The notes under the pieces: model-generated
Database searches by the model: none
What the model was told of the DNA's origin: nothing
The model's input: the letters and a program-made list of their open reading frames with translations, nothing else
In this document: positions 2 through 6,712 of the stretch, piece by piece
Numbering within the stretch: the first letter of the stretch is position 1
Layout: each line of letters starts with the position of its first letter
Assembly: GCA_038111655.1 (NCBI GenBank)
Contig: JAYNLI010000004.1
Coordinates: 59 to 64,058 of the forward strand
Direction: 5' to 3'
Length of the DNA: 64,000 nt
Origin: Bordetella sp.
GTDB lineage: Bacteria; Pseudomonadota; Gammaproteobacteria; Burkholderiales; Burkholderiaceae_A
Program-made: the position numbers and the translations under genes

Positions 2-847
2 GTGCGTGGTATCGATGCCATTATGGGTGGTCATACCCACGACGGTGTACCCCAGCCTGTTAAGGTCAAGAATGCTGGTGGCGTTACCCTGGTTACTAAT
101 GCAGGATCGAACACCAAGTTTCTGGGCGTACTCGATTTCGACGTGAAAGGCGGTAGGGTGGCTGATTTCCGCTACAAACTACTTCCCGTGTTTGCCAATA
201 TGTTGCCCGCCGATAAAGAAATGCAGGCTTTTATCGATCGAGTACGCGGCCCCTACAAGGCCAAGCTTGAAGAGACCTTGGCAATGACCGAAGGTTTGCT
301 CTACCGTCGTGGCAATTTCAATGGTAGTTTCGACCAACTCATTGTTGACGCCCTTATGGAGGTAAAGGGGGCCGATCTTGCTTTCTCGCCTGGCTTTCGT
401 TGGGGCACCAGCCTGTTGCCGGGTCAGGCCATTACGCGTGAGCATGTTATGGACCAAACGGCCACGACTTACTCCTACAGTACGCTAACGGAGATGTCGG
501 GAGAGATGATCAAAACGGTCTTGGAAGACGTCTGCGACAACTTGTTTAACCCTGATCCTTATTATCAACAGGGTGGTGACATGGTTCGAGTAGGCGGACT
601 GGAGTACACCTGTGCACCGCTTGAAAAGATGGGTAACCGGATTCAAGACATGCGCCTTAGGGGTAAGCCTATTGAGGCCAACAAGAATTACAAAGTTGCC
701 GGTTGGGCCCCAGTGGCAGAAGGCGCCACTGGTGAGCCTTTATGGGATGTGATGGAGACCTGGTTAAAGGCGAAAAAGGTCGTTCCACCCCTTAAGATCA
801 ATACGCCTAAGTTGCTGGGTATGAAGGGCAATCCTGGTATCGCCTAA
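2..847 (+). CDS. soxB: Thiosulfohydrolase SoxB, 3' part (truncated by window edge)
   Basis: GGHTHD metal motif, LYRRGNF, FSPGFRWG and NPDPYYQQGGDMVR motifs characteristic of the SoxB C-terminal half. Confidence 0.93.
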   Translation: MRGIDAIMGGHTHDGVPQPVKVKNAGGVTLVTNAGSNTKFLGVLDFDVKGGRVADFRYKLLPVFANMLPADKEMQAFIDRVRGPYKAKLEETLAMTEGLLYRRGNFNGSFDQLIVDALMEVKGADLAFSPGFRWGTSLLPGQAITREHVMDQTATTYSYSTLTEMSGEMIKTVLEDVCDNLFNPDPYYQQGGDMVRVGGLEYTCAPLEKMGNRIQDMRLRGKPIEANKNYKVAGWAPVAEGATGEPLWDVMETWLKAKKVVPPLKINTPKLLGMKGNPGIA

Positions 848-972: not shown

Positions 973-1707
973 TTAGCCTCTTGACGGGGGTTGGCCAAAG
1001 TCAAGGTTGTTGCACTCTTCACATTCCTCTTTGAACACGCCAAGCTTCACCATTAATGCATGAATTTTGCAGCCCACGCAAAACCCTAAAACAGCCTCCA
1101 GCCACATAAAACCAAGGCAGACCCAAACCATAACAAGAGGAAGCCATCGGGGAAGGTATTGTTCCGTTGTTGGTAAGACGGGCTGTTGGAAAATCACATT
1201 AGCTATAGCGGCAAATTTTTCTGGATGAAAAAAGACGAGGCAGAGTGAAATCATGCTTGCGCCGATAACCCACGCGAAGCGCTTTGGTGCAAGCGGTTTC
1301 CATAGAGGCCTATGGTGGCGGGCGAGGAGACTCGCAAGCCATATTGTGGGAGATAAATAGCTGGTTCTGATAAACATTCCAGACACCATTTCAAGGAGGG
1401 CATAGAAGAGAACGTAGGTCTGTATGGTGTAGTCGTAGGTGCGACGTGTTGCTTCAACCATATAAAGAATGCGACCGTCGAAGTCCATGTCGTAGGTGTC
1501 ATTAATGACGTTACCCGTGACCTCCCAATGACCTCCGAAGATAATATCGAACAATGTAAATGCCATATAAACCGGAATAACTAGCATCATCCCTGCGCGA
1601 ATCTTGACTGCAGTTTCGTTAATGTAAGGGGTGAAGTCGTCTTTGCTTCTAAACCATAAAGGTCCTAGGCTGGGAAGGTTTTGTGGGGCAGACAGAGTTG
1701 TGCTCAT
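973..1707 (-). CDS. DUF4395-family inner-membrane protein with Cys-rich C-terminus
   Basis: INE..V.IRAG start, PKRFAW.IG and EAVLGFCVGC motifs, several TM segments, C-terminal CEEC; ATG at 1707 preferred over the 1809 ORF start. Confidence 0.75.
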   Translation of the reverse strand: MSTTLSAPQNLPSLGPLWFRSKDDFTPYINETAVKIRAGMMLVIPVYMAFTLFDIIFGGHWEVTGNVINDTYDMDFDGRILYMVEATRRTYDYTIQTYVLFYALLEMVSGMFIRTSYLSPTIWLASLLARHHRPLWKPLAPKRFAWVIGASMISLCLVFFHPEKFAAIANVIFQQPVLPTTEQYLPRWLPLVMVWVCLGFMWLEAVLGFCVGCKIHALMVKLGVFKEECEECNNLDFGQPPSRG

Positions 1708-1770
1708 AGCAAATGGCTCAAGGTTTAAGTGATTGAATAAGTCACACTTTGACAATAACCCTGTGGGAAG

Positions 1771-1815
1771 ACCCAACCAACTCCCGGAGGTATTACCGTC
1801 GGGAGCCAATTGGGC
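1771..1815 (-). other. Strand-specific intergenic RNA hairpin (16-bp stem with 5 G-U pairs)
   Basis: Minus-strand GCCCAAUUGGCUCCCG pairs fully with CGGGAGUUGGUUGGGU; the wobbles work only on the operon's sense strand. Confidence 0.6.
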
Positions 1816-1842
1816 CTAGGGGACAACATTGAAGGCTGGTTC

Positions 1843-3168
1843 TTAGAACTGTTTGCTGTATTGCAGACCGAAGGAGTATTGCTTCATTTCTATCGTCTCT
1901 TGAATAGTGTTTTCTGGAAGCCCGTTCAGTCGGTTAAATAGAGAACTCCCAGTAACAGAGACTTTGGGAGCATACATGGCGAACCAACTCCAATCTGACA
2001 AATCATTAATTTTATAAGTACCACCAATGGTGTAATGATCTTCCATAACGCCCGGAGCGAGAATATTAAAGGTCACGTCTTCTGCACGAATTGGGTTATC
2101 CCCTTTGTTATAGCCCACTCTCAAAATCGTCTTGTCATTAACTTGCCACTGAGCGCCTAGTTTGATGACATTAATATTTCTCCAGCCAAAACCTGAACCG
2201 GCATCGGCGCCAAGATTGGGGGTGCCAGCAGTAAATAGGCTTGTAATTGTGTTGGACGAGGCATTACTGACAGATTTGACATCTTCGTAGTTAATGGCGC
2301 TGTAATCGATTGCCACCTGAATCGCCGGACTGACTTGAATTGCAGCACCAACAGTCCAATTTGATGGGATGTCAAAATCGCCACCAGACGCAAAAAGTTC
2401 GGAGTACTTTTTAAATTTTGACATATTGATCTTAGGACTATAGCTAGCACCTACGCTGACCGTTTGGCTCACTCTTGACAGAGCACCTAAGCGCACACCG
2501 AACCCAGTGCTAGTGTCGTATCCTTGATTTGAAAGCTTTGATGTTCCCTGAGATGGGGTCATGAAAGAAAATGAATCAACTCCTACAGCTTCAAATCTTT
2601 GATACAAAAAAAGTGGGGAGAATCCGATTGAGGAGTTTTCGTTAACCTTATAAGCGGCTGTTGGAGCAATTGTTAGCTGCATTAGATCAACTCCAAGGTT
2701 TCCGGAGCCGCACATTGCATTACCGAGGCCACTGGGAATAGTATTACAGGCAAAGCTAGCTCCTCTATAGGTTGTATTCATACCCCCATTCCCATAAACC
2801 GATATTCCAACTCCGACCTTCTCAGAGAGACCCAGGTTATATGCGAATTCAGGAATTGGAAACGTCCGCTCGGAGCTCTTAACGGTTCCGGTGGTCATTG
2901 ACATGGCTGGGATACTGCGGGTTGCCGACCTATCCGGCATGAAGAAGTCTACGCCCAAGTCCCAGCGGTTTCCCACAAAGGCTGCTGCCGCGGGGTTATT
3001 GGCACCTGCAAAGGCATCTTGCGTCATGGCAACCGCCGCCCCACCCATGCCCTTGGCCTTCACGCCTATGCCGTGAGGAAAGTAGCCGTTTGTAGCGAAA
3101 GCTGATGCTCCGACCACACTCAGTGATACGGCAACAGCGAGTTGTTTGAGTTTCTGATTGCTTTTCAT
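1843..3168 (-). CDS. OmpP1/FadL/TodX-family outer-membrane channel
   Basis: Signal peptide ending AFA, hatch motif G.KAKGMGGA...NNPA, beta-barrel pattern, C-terminal Phe; strong SD GAGGAG. Confidence 0.88.
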   Translation of the reverse strand: MKSNQKLKQLAVAVSLSVVGASAFATNGYFPHGIGVKAKGMGGAAVAMTQDAFAGANNPAAAAFVGNRWDLGVDFFMPDRSATRSIPAMSMTTGTVKSSERTFPIPEFAYNLGLSEKVGVGISVYGNGGMNTTYRGASFACNTIPSGLGNAMCGSGNLGVDLMQLTIAPTAAYKVNENSSIGFSPLFLYQRFEAVGVDSFSFMTPSQGTSKLSNQGYDTSTGFGVRLGALSRVSQTVSVGASYSPKINMSKFKKYSELFASGGDFDIPSNWTVGAAIQVSPAIQVAIDYSAINYEDVKSVSNASSNTITSLFTAGTPNLGADAGSGFGWRNINVIKLGAQWQVNDKTILRVGYNKGDNPIRAEDVTFNILAPGVMEDHYTIGGTYKINDLSDWSWFAMYAPKVSVTGSSLFNRLNGLPENTIQETIEMKQYSFGLQYSKQF

Positions 3169-3219
3169 TGTTTTCTCCTCGACTTGTTATTAATCGTGTT
3201 TTGTTTCTTCAGGTATTTT

Positions 3220-3804
3220 CTAGAACTCACCCTTGGAGGCTCGCTCCATCATTTGGTGCATGGTTTCGCGCACAGACCATGCTTCCTCTTTGAGAGGCGA
3301 GGGCAGCTTGCGCCCCATCTTGACCATCATGTCCATGTTCAGGGTATAGAGCCAGAGTCCGTCTTCTTTCTCGAGGAGCGTAATTCGGCAAGGCATGTAT
3401 GCGGCCATATGTGGGCTGAAGTCCGCCATGCGTCGAGCAATCATTGGGCTACAGTAGTTAAAGATGGTAAGGATCTTTTCCTTTTTTCCCGTCCGCTTAG
3501 CGATTTCCTCCGAAAGCGGGAGGATACCGACTTCTCGCATATTACGTTCCGTTGCTACCAGCGATAGGATCTGAGCGACGTCTTCTGCTGAAACACCTGG
3601 CTTTACTTTTCTCTCCCATGTGGTGGCGATCGCGATGTCTCCCTCGCCCTCGATCCAACGATCCCAAAGCTTCATAGCTTCAGGGCCGGCACCATCTTCA
3701 AGCTTGCTAATTGTTGCGAGCGTCCCGCAACCTGTTAGGCCAGCTATAAGTACTATCGAAGCGGCGAGTCGACTGATGAATTGAGAGTAAGAGCGTTGCT
3801 GCAT
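3220..3804 (-). CDS. DUF302-domain lipoprotein
   Basis: Lipobox LTG-C; NYCSP and AAYMPCRI motifs typical of DUF302; SD AAGGAGG. Confidence 0.8.
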   Translation of the reverse strand: MQQRSYSQFISRLAASIVLIAGLTGCGTLATISKLEDGAGPEAMKLWDRWIEGEGDIAIATTWERKVKPGVSAEDVAQILSLVATERNMREVGILPLSEEIAKRTGKKEKILTIFNYCSPMIARRMADFSPHMAAYMPCRITLLEKEDGLWLYTLNMDMMVKMGRKLPSPLKEEAWSVRETMHQMMERASKGEF

Positions 3805-3835
3805 GCTGGTGCCTCCTTGATTGAATTCTTTATAG

Positions 3836-3851
3836 ATACCCTCGGGGGTAT
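3836..3851. promoter_or_regulatory. CsoR/CstR-type operator ATACCCTCGGGGGTAT in the divergent promoter region
   Basis: 16-bp pseudo-palindrome (7/8 symmetric) of form ATACC-GC core-GGTAT, the known CsoR-family operator architecture; ~100 bp from a csoR-family gene; on the minus strand it lies between TTAATA and TATAAA hexamers. Confidence 0.8.
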
Positions 3852-3951
3852 ATTAAGATTGCGCTCTTTTTCTTGATTCTGCAAATTGCAGCGCACCATT
3901 TTTTCAGGGATTGTTGCGGTAAGTTAACAACCTTAGGTATAAAGAGCTTAA

Positions 3952-4245
3952 ATGAAGACTTTGTCATCAGACCGAGAGCGGCAGGAGCGCACCGTGATGG
4001 TCAATCGCTTGCGGCGTATAGAAGGCCAGGTGAGGGGCATAATCCAGATGATTGACCAGGGCCAAGGTTGCGAAGAGGTTGCTCAACAAATGGCTGCAAC
4101 GCGTCGTGCCCTTGAGAAGGCATACCTTCATATGATGAGCTGTTCGATTATGGAGGCAGTCGCAGATTTATCTGATGAATCGATGTTGCCCGACAAGCGC
4201 AAAGAGCTCGACCGGGTTGTTGAATTACTGCGGAAATACGCTTAA
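3952..4245 (+). CDS. CsoR/RcnR/CstR-family transcriptional repressor
   Basis: RLRRIEGQVRGI..M....C..V.QQ..A signature, 97 aa. Confidence 0.9.
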   Translation: MKTLSSDRERQERTVMVNRLRRIEGQVRGIIQMIDQGQGCEEVAQQMAATRRALEKAYLHMMSCSIMEAVADLSDESMLPDKRKELDRVVELLRKYA

Positions 4246-4292
4246 GTTACTCTGTGGTGCAAAGTTAGATTGATTTTTAAGGGGTGGCGTTT

Positions 4293-4652
4293 ATGAACCA
4301 GGTCTTTTTAAGTGGTCGGTCAAGTGTGAGTGTTCATGCAGCAGCAATTCTTTTGGGTGTTGGGCTCATGGTTATCTCGAGCTATGCTCATGCGGTTTTG
4401 TTCGCCAAGGGCAATGCAGAAATTGGGGCGAAGCTTCATGCAAAAACCTGTGCCTCCTGCCATAACTCCATGATGCCGGACGGTAAAGGCGAGGAACTCT
4501 ATTCGGAAGATTTTCGAAAGACGACTGACGCAGGTAAGCTGAAGACTATGGTTCAGTTTTGCGCTACACGCACTAATTCAGGTTGGTTTGACGAGGAAAT
4601 TGAGCATGTCTCCCGCTACCTGAATGACAACTATTACAAGTTCAAGCAGTGA
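4293..4652 (+). CDS. Periplasmic monoheme c-type cytochrome (green-heme-protein-like, candidate His/Cys ligation)
   Basis: Signal peptide ending AHA, one CASCH heme motif, distal VQFC......WFDEE...V..YLN..YYKF; alternative GTG start at 4284. Confidence 0.78.
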   Translation: MNQVFLSGRSSVSVHAAAILLGVGLMVISSYAHAVLFAKGNAEIGAKLHAKTCASCHNSMMPDGKGEELYSEDFRKTTDAGKLKTMVQFCATRTNSGWFDEEIEHVSRYLNDNYYKFKQ

Positions 4653-4706: not shown

Positions 4707-5348
4707 CTAGCGCCTGTCTTGAAGGGCGAAGTGACCTGTGAACTTACCCGCAAAGGTAACGAGCATCTCAGCACCGCTTGTGTCTGATTGAATAGAAGCA
4801 CCGGGTTGCTCAACGGGGTCGCTTGATTTCATCTGCAACAAGCCTGCTGGCCAGCTTACCTTTAGTTTTGCTGACATGGGCAGGTATCCATCAAAATAGC
4901 GTCTCATAAGGGGTCCCGCCTGAAGTTTATAGACCCCTTTTTCAGAGGTAAGCTCGAGGGCCTTTGATTGAAGACTAATGCAAATCTGGGCCCCCTTTTT
5001 CACGTTGGTAAGGGTGACTCGATGTTGTTCTGCTGCAATCGATTCAATACCCGAGTGGCTCTCAACCTTGAAATTTTTAAGCCTGTCAGGGTTAAAGGCA
5101 ATGACAACCTTGCGAATAGGGTCGAGACGGTAGTGGCATGTTAATAAAGAGACCACCCCATCTTGAAGAGATGACTCGGTTAGTAGTACTTTTGACTCAT
5201 AGTGATAGCTATTTGGGTCAGGATGTTTTGCTAAGTATTTAAGCTCCCCTTCTTTGGCAATATCGTCAAACTCTAAGGCGAAAGTTGTTGAACAACAACC
5301 TAGTGTAGCCAGGGTAAGGATAAGCAGCCGGGTGACTGGCGCGGTCAT
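4707..5348 (-). CDS. Secreted/periplasmic hypothetical protein
   Basis: 213-aa ORF with N-terminal signal peptide, two mature-region Cys, GPLMRRYFDGYLPM segment; lies 10 bp downstream of tesA. Confidence 0.7.
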   Translation of the reverse strand: MTAPVTRLLILTLATLGCCSTTFALEFDDIAKEGELKYLAKHPDPNSYHYESKVLLTESSLQDGVVSLLTCHYRLDPIRKVVIAFNPDRLKNFKVESHSGIESIAAEQHRVTLTNVKKGAQICISLQSKALELTSEKGVYKLQAGPLMRRYFDGYLPMSAKLKVSWPAGLLQMKSSDPVEQPGASIQSDTSGAEMLVTFAGKFTGHFALQDRR

Positions 5349-5358
5349 CAGTGGCCTT

Positions 5359-6126
5359 TCATAGCAGTGGGTGCATTGTCTTCCAGATGGTTTCTAGAAT
5401 AACGGGCTGAGCCTTTGTGTTGGGGTGTATCTGGTCATCCTGAAAATAGCTTAGGTCTGCGGCAAATCCTTTAAGCATAGCTGGCACGGCCTGCACTAGA
5501 AGTTCTTTTGCAACCGAAGGCACGATGGCATCAAATTCTTTTAAATAGGCTTTACCAAGGTTCGGCGGTAGCCGCACGCCAACAATAAGAACTTGGGCCT
5601 TACTCGCAAGAGACTTTTGCACCATGGCCGTCAAATTAGCTCGGGTGGTTCGCAGGTCAAGCCCTCGTAGCCCATCGTTTGTACCCAACTGCAGAACCAC
5701 AAGCGCTGGTTTGACCTGGGCCAGTGCTCTCGGAAGTCGTTGAAGACCGCCAAACGTTGTTTCACCCGATAGGCTGCGGTTCTCAACCTTGTAGTTGAGC
5801 TTCATCGCGTCAAGCCGCTTCTGAAGAAGACTTACCCAGCCTTGTTCTCTTGGCAGGCCGTAGGCGGCCGACAGGCTGTCACCAAAAATTAAAATGGTGG
5901 CTTTGCTTGTATTAGCGGATGCTGAAGGGTTGTTCGGGCTGCTTTGCACAGCATTTGCAAGGCCAATGAGTAGAATCAGACTGAATAAGAATTGAATGAA
6001 TCGAAGGAGCGGAATGGCAGAAGGTGCAGGTACAACGCCATCAATGGCCCCCTTGGCGATCGAGGCAAGGGGCCTTGCGAAATGGGTTTCCGATGGCAAT
6101 GACAAGCTTTCAATTCTCCAGGACAT
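5359..6126 (-). CDS. tesA: GDSL arylesterase/acyl-CoA thioesterase I (start uncertain)
   Basis: FGDSLSAAYG, SGETT, LGTNDGLRG and D.IHP blocks; divergent to a ybbA-like ATPase. Confidence 0.88.
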   Translation of the reverse strand: MSWRIESLSLPSETHFARPLASIAKGAIDGVVPAPSAIPLLRFIQFLFSLILLIGLANAVQSSPNNPSASANTSKATILIFGDSLSAAYGLPREQGWVSLLQKRLDAMKLNYKVENRSLSGETTFGGLQRLPRALAQVKPALVVLQLGTNDGLRGLDLRTTRANLTAMVQKSLASKAQVLIVGVRLPPNLGKAYLKEFDAIVPSVAKELLVQAVPAMLKGFAADLSYFQDDQIHPNTKAQPVILETIWKTMHPLL

Positions 6127-6712
6127 TAATCTTCAAGTGCATGCGGGTGAATCGCTTGCGATGGTTGGGCCTTCAGGATGTGGCAAGTCTACGCTTCTGG
6201 GACTTTTAGCGGGTCTTGATACGCCCTCGCACGGCGAGGTTTATTGGGCCGGTGAACCCATTTCCTCGCTCTCCGAGGAGCAACGTAGTCTTCGCCGTAA
6301 TGGTCGATTTGGTTTTGTTTTTCAGTCGTTTCAGTTACTTCCTCAACTTAATGCACTTGAAAATGTCATGTTACCTCTAGAGCTTCGGGACGATCGCGAT
6401 GCCAAGTCGAAGGCCATAGCAATGCTGTCGCAGGTTGGCCTCTCGGGACGTGAGCAACACTTTCCAGCCACGCTATCCGGTGGCGAGCAACAGCGGGTTG
6501 CTCTTGCCCGAGCCTTTGTCGTGACCCCAGAATTACTCTTTGCCGATGAGCCAACAGGAAGCCTTGACTACGAGAGTGGTGCGAGGGTGATGGAGCTGTT
6601 CTTTGACCTGCAAAAGAGCTTCGGCACGACTCTTATTGTCGTAACCCACGATGAAAGCCTTGCGAAGGCTTGTAGCCGCTGTTTACGAATGCAGGCGGGC
6701 CGGATCGTATAA
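6014..6712 (+). CDS. ybbA: ABC transporter ATP-binding protein, YbbA-like
   Basis: Walker [25 protein letters not shown]; head-to-head with tesA; SD AAGGAG before 6014 (alternative starts 5996, 6044). Confidence 0.82.

Follow-up and report, generated by a model that had tools for sequence, protein, structure and literature searches.

A group of cell-envelope genes under the predicted control of a CsoR-family repressor lies directly beside soxB in a 64,000-nucleotide stretch of DNA (the window) from Bordetella sp., order Burkholderiales (GenBank assembly GCA_038111655.1, contig JAYNLI010000004.1), and its central part recurs in related genomes in the company of sulfur-oxidation genes. The module is a divergon. 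Leftward it encodes a DUF302 lipoprotein, a TodX/FadL-family outer-membrane channel and a DUF4395 inner-membrane protein, and rightward a CsoR-family repressor followed by a small cytochrome c, with a CsoR/CstR-type operator between the two arms. The module, the operator and the cysteine pair of the regulator are conserved among relatives, and the module is associated with sulfur-oxidation genes. Judged by these sequence features, the module may serve the sulfur-oxidation machinery of the cell, its cargo most likely being zero-valent sulfur, an interpretation that we hold with moderate confidence. The genes, protein families and Cys motifs which a first-pass annotation had described beside soxB were all recovered with Pfam, NCBIfam and by inspection of the sequence, as was the operator. 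The interpretation then attached to them, that of a sulfane-sulfur-induced relay across the envelope which imports or mobilises hydrophobic sulfur for Sox, is partly supported.

Conservation of the module and its operator

With the channel profile one locus was retrieved for each species, 80 in all and every one from the Burkholderiales, and the open reading frames (ORFs) of these loci were screened with the proteins of the window as well as with Sox and further sulfur proteins from annotated relatives. The DUF302 lipoprotein gene was found directly upstream of the channel gene in 44 of the 80 loci, a divergent CsoR-family gene in 35, and a homologue of the small cytochrome beside the DUF302-FadL pair in 15. 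The three leftward genes had at first been taken for a unit; this holds for the DUF302-FadL pair, which is conserved, but not for DUF4395, an inconstant partner that adjoins the channel gene in 3/80 loci. Outside the Burkholderiales, a DUF302 gene was found within 1.5 kb of the FadL clade in none of 29 loci, and the clade follows Sox there with no DUF302 beside it.

The operator core, TACCC-N4-GGGTA, occurs once in the 64 kb, against 0.01 occurrences expected from shuffled sequences, and is the only intergenic copy found across the 1.66-Mb assembly; the other relaxed matches checked in this assembly fell within coding regions, and none was convincing as a further operator. From the operator it is 32 nt downstream to the start codon of DUF302, and about 100 nt to the start of the repressor gene itself. 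Directly downstream of the operator on the minus strand is the sequence TATAAA (plus-strand 3827-3832), and a strong ribosome-binding site, AAGGAGG, precedes DUF302, so that the operator is predicted to overlap the likely promoter of the leftward operon. About 40 of the 44 related loci have the core upstream of DUF302, some of them without an adjacent repressor gene. Limnohabitans is an example: there the operator separates the cytochrome gene from the lipoprotein gene, and such repressor genes as were detected are located upstream and not adjacent. As a GC-cored inverted repeat the window operator resembles the cst operator of S. mitis, ATACCCTTATGGGGTAT (PMC8643695). Regulator, operator, lipoprotein and channel together constitute what is, by these sequence criteria, a predicted conserved regulon. 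Upstream of unlinked DUF4395 genes only near-matches to the operator were found (2/12), and the membership of these genes in the regulon is therefore not supported.

An 8-nt perfect inverted repeat, TCTTTATA / TATAAAGA, at 3827-3834 and 3938-3945, flanks the intergenic region of the window, and each of its arms could serve as a -10 element for one of the divergent transcripts.

The CsoR-family regulator

The window regulator carries Cys40, His60 and Cys64. The two cysteines are invariant in 35 orthologues, and position 60 is occupied by Arg in 26 of these, by His in 7 (the window copy included) and by Ser in 2. Within the CsoR family, copper sensors are characterised by an x-C-H-C pattern and copA/copZ neighbours, and persulfide sensors by an x-C-x-C pattern and neighbours in sulfur metabolism (Fakhoury et al., PMC8643695). 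Having two cysteines without a conserved His, the regulator family appears to fit the pattern of the persulfide sensor CstR and not that of the copper sensors. Its predicted target genes co-occur with sox, SQR-like and fcc genes and are linked to them, and neither the window nor the related loci that were examined have copA or copZ as a neighbour. Derepression by sulfane sulfur, as suggested in the first-pass annotation, would accord with the two invariant cysteines of the family, and less so with the retained His60 of the window copy.

CstR of Staphylococcus, Enterococcus and Streptococcus (PDB 7mq1-3) belongs to the same PF02583 fold family and has likewise two conserved Cys and no conserved His, although the similarity of the regulator to the CstR structures is only about E 2e-6 and the window copy, unlike CstR, keeps a His. 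When aligned by HMMER to InrS and 6AHX, the HxxxC of the regulator comes into register with the His/Cys of these proteins by way of a 5-residue gap, from which it follows that helix alpha-2 is probably shorter than in characterised members; compared with CstR, it is five residues shorter between the two Cys. The sphere of control would differ as well, since CstR governs rhodanese, persulfide dioxygenase and SQR detoxification genes whereas this proteobacterial regulator is predicted to control envelope proteins. Sensing of the FrmR/RcnR type was considered and rejected, as the N-terminus (MKTLSS) has no Pro2/His3 signature, a His triad is missing and the NCBIfam scores are far under their cut-offs.

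The Cys-His-Cys set of the window regulator and the general CsoR type of the operator also suit a different explanation, in which the module is a copper or soft-metal stress regulon and a Cu(I)-sensing CsoR derepresses envelope proteins that handle periplasmic copper through their Cys pairs and haem. We consider this improbable. The His is missing from 28 of the 35 orthologous regulators, which would act on the same operon through the same operator, and CopA, CopZ or another metal pump is adjacent in no locus examined, while such neighbours mark Cu-sensing clusters (PMC8643695). A multicopper oxidase is encoded upstream of the module in isolate LSUCC0115, and neither a CopA-type P1B ATPase nor CueR was detected in the assembly of the window (1.66 Mb, 89% complete), hence no other copper sensor is evident; the association with Sox, on the other hand, has no obvious copper logic.

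Association with sulfur-oxidation genes

Genes for Sox, SQR-like, FccAB, TsuA-like or DsrE proteins are present within 8 kb in 44 of the 80 loci; as a control, 20 random 17-kb windows were taken from SoxB-positive genomes of the same family, and these contained no such gene. The linkage is realised in several gene orders. In the window and in a close relative (L006) the module is convergent on soxB, whereas in Limnohabitans it heads the sox cluster in the order rhodanese, cytochrome c, cytochrome c, DUF302, FadL, SoxR, SoxCDYZAXB. Locus L087 has CsoR, cytochrome c, DUF302, FadL, SoxR and SoxCDYZA on one strand and, on the other side, DUF4395, thioredoxin, TsuA, FccAB and DsrE. In a branch of the channel tree without DUF302, an SQR-like flavoprotein gene follows directly after the channel gene, or else FccAB, TsuA or Sox genes are nearby.

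The association is found also at the level of whole genomes. Among 301 genomes sampled from the Limnohabitans family, 24 contain the DUF302 lipoprotein clade; SoxB is present in all 24 carriers as against 155 of the 277 non-carriers, and in 16 of the 24 the lipoprotein gene is located within 16 kb of soxB. A class-wide sample was drawn evenly, with 350 genomes from about 235 families and no more than about two from any one family. Of these gammaproteobacterial genomes 89, or roughly a quarter, contain the FadL clade, and SoxB is found in 73 of the 89 (82%) compared with 58 of the 261 genomes that lack the clade (odds ratio 16; Fisher p 9e-24, a value overstated in that related genomes are not independent). 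In many of the genomes that have both, the FadL-clade gene and soxB are within 10 kb of each other. A purely historical explanation of this co-occurrence is unlikely given the even sampling and the varied gene arrangements. That clusters of this kind should be enriched in sulfur oxidisers had been foreseen in the first-pass annotation, and enriched and often linked they proved to be.

At its simplest, the divergon might be an array of unrelated neighbours that has come to stand beside soxB by coincidence in one genome. The adjacency of DUF302 and FadL in 44/80 loci, the conserved operator, the co-occurrence statistics and the control windows (0/20) contradict this, even if DUF4395 is unlinked in some genomes and two SoxB-positive congeners are without the module, and we regard coincidence as extremely improbable.

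Some related arrangements were observed alongside. Five loci from the Sphaerotilaceae and relatives (L029, L067, L068, L071 and L073) have no DUF302 and an SQR-like flavoprotein gene about 40-70 nt after FadL, which looks like a two-gene unit of channel and sulfide oxidase. In LSUCC0115 (L004/L007) the order is CsoR, divergent from DUF302-FadL-DUF4395, and then an SQR-like flavoprotein gene; upstream of the module are an ArsR-family gene, a DUF442/BLH phosphatase-like gene and genes for a Rieske-like protein and the multicopper oxidase, and the whole may be a larger island of sulfur or metal redox genes. Tandem pairs of the FadL-clade gene occur in some gammaproteobacterial genomes (L139 = G737:C134, L145, L147 and L158), and the tandem copies in G737 are about 5 kb from soxB.

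The outer-membrane channel

The channel matches model positions 8-421 of the 421 of PF03349 and has a signal peptide that ends in AFA, before TNGYF. Its NPA hatch motif (N58-P59-A60) is invariant in 82/82 clade members, and most members (60-70 of 83) have a Cys pair in one loop. The clade profile is nearest to TodX, TbuX and CymD (E 1e-25 to 5e-18), and its distance to E. coli FadL is large (5e-6). TodX, TbuX and CymD carry small neutral hydrophobic compounds, and the characterised FadL/TodX channels in general carry fatty acids and monoaromatics; nearness to the monoaromatic channels would suit a small uncharged hydrophobic cargo. With the TodX subfamily (PDB 3brz, 3bry and 6z34) the channel shares the full-length Pfam family, the signal peptide and the NPA hatch, and like these proteins it presumably lets small hydrophobic molecules without charge through passively. 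It differs from them in that it is not beside aromatic-degradation genes, in that it forms a clade of its own which co-occurs with SoxB (73/89), and in that it is paired, in the Burkholderiales, with a DUF302 lipoprotein and a CsoR-family operator.

The known cargoes of the family allow that channel and lipoprotein import another hydrophobic compound, be it fatty acids, aromatic or terpenoid carbon or volatile organosulfur, and that the proximity to sulfur genes reflects the flexible genomic islands shared by freshwater and estuarine bacteria. This alternative, which we judge unlikely but the strongest of those considered, gains from the channel being the only FadL-family gene detected in the assembly and from the 20 of 44 DUF302-linked loci that have no sulfur gene within 8 kb. 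The catabolic genes for such substrates are, however, absent beside the module and none was noticed in related loci. No gene of fatty-acid or aromatic catabolism and no metal pump is found within about 25 kb of the module, in line with the first-pass annotation, which had remarked on none nearby. Furthermore, the SoxB association holds over about 235 families with linkage recurring in several gene orders, and control by a thiol-based CsoR-family repressor is untypical for the regulation of hydrocarbon or fatty-acid uptake.

A channel with a comparable role has been suggested in another phylum. CT2230, a FadL-family protein of Chlorobaculum tepidum, was proposed to move hydrophobic sulfur chains (bioRxiv 10.1101/172254). 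Both are FadL-family channels of sulfur oxidisers, CT2230 belonging to a sulfide-responsive regulon; its role is a proposal, and the likeness lies in the idea of a channel for sulfur. CT2230 has a different proposed regulator and no DUF302 or DUF4395 partner reported.

The DUF302 lipoprotein

The lipoprotein has a lipobox, LTGC (Cys26), and two further cysteines in the motifs NYCSP (Cys118) and MPCR (Cys139). All three, together with long stretches of sequence, are invariant in alignments of 33 (A2) and 45 sequences, and the clade is distinguished by a conserved N-terminal extension of about 50 residues with a helix. As there is no Asp at position +2, the protein is probably anchored in the outer membrane (E. 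coli rule). The AlphaFold2 model has a predicted local distance difference test (pLDDT) value of 81, and Foldseek placed it at probability 1.00 with 1j3m, 1q9u and 7tj1; the matches are DUF302 structures only, all of them uncharacterised. In TT1751, a DUF302 protein whose context is unrelated, the two Cys fall at the positions aligned with Cys118 and Cys139, and the pair is accordingly not special to the lipoprotein clade. A complex prediction for FadL (25-441) and DUF302 (27-194) gave a score of 0.00, which counts neither for nor against binding.

DUF302 genes are placed among sulfur-oxidation genes in unrelated lineages too, in the arrangements soxA-DUF302-soxB in Acidithiobacillia (PMC5037610) and soxF-DUF302-soxH in Sulfitobacter (PMC11034169) and within the sqr operon of Synechocystis (PMC5061849). 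The window protein differs in being a lipoprotein with an N-terminal extension, in its predicted cotranscription with FadL and in its CsoR-family operator. In two loci of another Burkholderiales family (L097 and L098, family f29), a distant DUF302 (about 75 bits) either follows soxB directly or adjoins fccAB-soxYZ, and a FadL gene is located 1-2.5 kb from this divergent-sequence DUF302, so that DUF302 and FadL are again together in a sox/fcc context.

DUF4395 and the cytochrome c

DUF4395 is the looser member of the module and, as a part of the relay that had been proposed, the weakest; it is found in the same genomes as the module but often at another site. In the 301-genome sample its clade is present in eight genomes, all eight of which also have the DUF302 clade. 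It lies right after soxB in three lineages, and in other genomes it is at sites unlinked to the channel. The protein carries the motifs CVGC and CEEC, and six Cys, two in helices followed by CxGC and CxxC, are conserved in 22-23 of 23 diverse relatives and are common to distant and fused members alike. A WKPxxPKRFAW motif is conserved family-wide. All ten of the longer relatives (P0271-P0351) are fused to Thioredoxin_8 (nine) or to glutaredoxin (one), and because of these fusions DUF4395 looks like a membrane thiol-redox protein and not like an inner-membrane sulfur carrier; with its Cys complement taken into account, we read it as a putative membrane thiol-redox or metal-Cys4 protein. By the positive-inside rule, the C-terminal Cys4 motif is predicted to be cytoplasmic. 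The paired cysteines that had been invoked for a relay through lipoprotein and inner-membrane protein are thus present in both, but the pair of the former is shared with TT1751 and the CxxC motifs of the latter would not face the periplasm.

Another Cys-bearing membrane protein is found beside sox genes in the Paracoccus-type clusters, where SoxV (CcdA-like) accompanies the thioredoxins SoxW/SoxS. Relatives of SoxV work with thioredoxin-like domains and DUF4395 is fused to such domains, and the two are perhaps functionally analogous; they are not homologous. For DUF4395, which has four helices and six conserved Cys, no similarity to CcdA/DsbD could be detected in either sequence or fold. Homology to CcdA/DsbD was rejected, since Pfam and NCBIfam match DUF4395 alone and Foldseek found no PDB fold match for the DUF4395 model at E<=0.001.

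The small cytochrome has the haem motif CASCH and, in addition, Cys93 and Met89. Cys93 is invariant in 16 homologues and Met89 is conserved; since both are kept, either may be the sixth ligand of the haem.

Genes of the window and its organism

The coordinates of the module are collected in Table 1. The window begins inside soxB, a context gene convergent with DUF4395. The 5' end of soxB lies on another contig of the assembly (C120) together with soxA and a 209-aa gene, taken to be soxX, and SoxR-SoxC are on a third (C29), and the organism is therefore a Sox-type sulfur oxidiser. The isolate LSUCC0115 falls in the same genus. The DUF4395 ORF is open to 1809 (973-1809), and an ATG at 1707 gives a protein of 244 aa; this is likely the true start, as it matches relatives of 226-245 aa.

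Table 1. Module genes, operator and adjoining soxB in the window, with the basis of each assignment
Feature	Position	Strand	Basis
soxB, 3' part (thiosulfohydrolase)	2-847	+	TIGR04486, 429 bits, model positions 288-555
DUF4395 four-helix inner-membrane protein	973-1707	-	PF14340, 54.1 bits (cut-off 24.5)
TodX/FadL-family outer-membrane channel, 441 aa	1843-3168	-	PF03349 full-length, 71.2 bits (cut-off 29.7)
DUF302 lipoprotein, 194 aa	3220-3804	-	PF03625, 38.3 bits (cut-off 23)
CsoR/CstR-type operator ATACCCTCGGGGGTAT (ATACCC-TCGG-GGGTAT)	3836-3851	intergenic	from sequence
CsoR-family repressor, 97 aa	3952-4245	+	PF02583, 72 bits
Small exported mono-haem cytochrome c	4284-4652	+	PF13442 weak, 26.4 bits, just below cut-off

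As neighbours the module has genes for a TesA-like GDSL esterase and for ABC ATPases, besides purL, mfd, ispDF, alr and squalene/hopanoid genes. At 4707-5348 on the minus strand, bounded by the cytochrome gene on one side and the TesA-like gene on the other, is a gene for a predicted lipoprotein of 213 aa (lipobox TLGC), which belongs to no Pfam or NCBIfam family and was detected in no relatives but the closest (L006 and the P0121 contig). The ORF of the esterase (5359-6126, minus strand) overlaps the start of an ABC ATPase ORF (5996-6712, plus strand) by about 130 nt; its real start is probably further downstream, as a relative's protein is called at 196 aa. The lack of CopA and CueR, if true of the complete genome, would be unusual. 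A search of sequencing runs for the DNA of the window listed no RNA run, and the DNA matches were estuary metagenomes.

Proposed function and significance

Several of the observations weigh against a role in sulfur oxidation or narrow it. SoxB is missing from 16 of the 89 FadL-clade genomes, and 20 loci that combine DUF302, CsoR and FadL (those of Hydrogenophaga and Tepidimonas, for instance) are without a sulfur gene within 8 kb. Of four congeners, two possess SoxB and lack the module, which is consequently accessory and not essential. The His60 retained in the window regulator leaves room for Cu(I) sensing by this protein, the channel, as the sole FadL-family member detected in the assembly, might serve for common hydrophobic nutrients as well, and unlinked DUF4395 genes are without a consistent operator. 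The non-independence of related genomes, by which the p-values are inflated, belongs here as well.

A role in handling zero-valent sulfur is nevertheless the interpretation that we prefer, and its inducer, its cargo, the direction of transport (uptake or release) and a relay from protein to protein are what we infer. A CstR-like two-Cys repressor would bind TACCC-N4-GGGTA over the DUF302-FadL-(DUF4395) promoter and would be released upon modification of its Cys pair, most likely by persulfides or polysulfides from Sox, SQR or FCC turnover. The TodX-type channel would then pass hydrophobic zero-valent sulfur, as S8 or sulfanes, between the medium or outer membrane and the periplasm, at the face of which the thiols of the DUF302 lipoprotein could open, capture or hold sulfur chains for SoxYZ. 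In this lineage, DUF4395 and the small periplasmic cytochrome c may service thiol or redox chemistry. Such regulatory logic is consistent both with substrate-induced uptake and with the relief of an excess of sulfane sulfur. Pairing of FadL with SQR in one operon would hint at release, and a place ahead of the sox genes at supply.

A wider proposal, which we put forward more tentatively than the preceding one, is that the FadL clade may be a dedicated outer-membrane pathway for zero-valent sulfur in Gram-negative sulfur oxidisers. In the Burkholderiales it would be combined with DUF302, DUF4395 and a persulfide-sensing repressor into a previously unrecognised envelope system inducible by sulfane sulfur. 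FadL channels and CstR-like repressors are of known kinds, and it is their combination that appears to be new; as the first-pass annotation had also held, no characterised system of this composition was found in the literature searched, nor was any functional characterisation of DUF302 or DUF4395, or of a FadL channel in connection with elemental sulfur.

How elemental sulfur (S0), which is insoluble in water, passes the outer membrane, inward for oxidation or outward to extracellular globules, is an old open question, and according to a 2023 study experiments had confirmed no membrane protein for S0 transport in sulfur oxidisers, whether acidophilic or neutrophilic (PMC10045233). The module may be such a route, and it names concrete and widespread candidate genes that are present in culturable bacteria, among them LSUCC0115, Limnohabitans spp., Tepidimonas ignava, Hydrogenophaga defluvii and Macromonas nakdongensis, together with a predicted pair of regulator and operator that is amenable to in vitro work. 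It would also give DUF302 and DUF4395 a first functional context, the thioredoxin and glutaredoxin fusions being the first functional hint for the latter, and, if true, it would extend CstR-like sensing to lithotrophic Proteobacteria.

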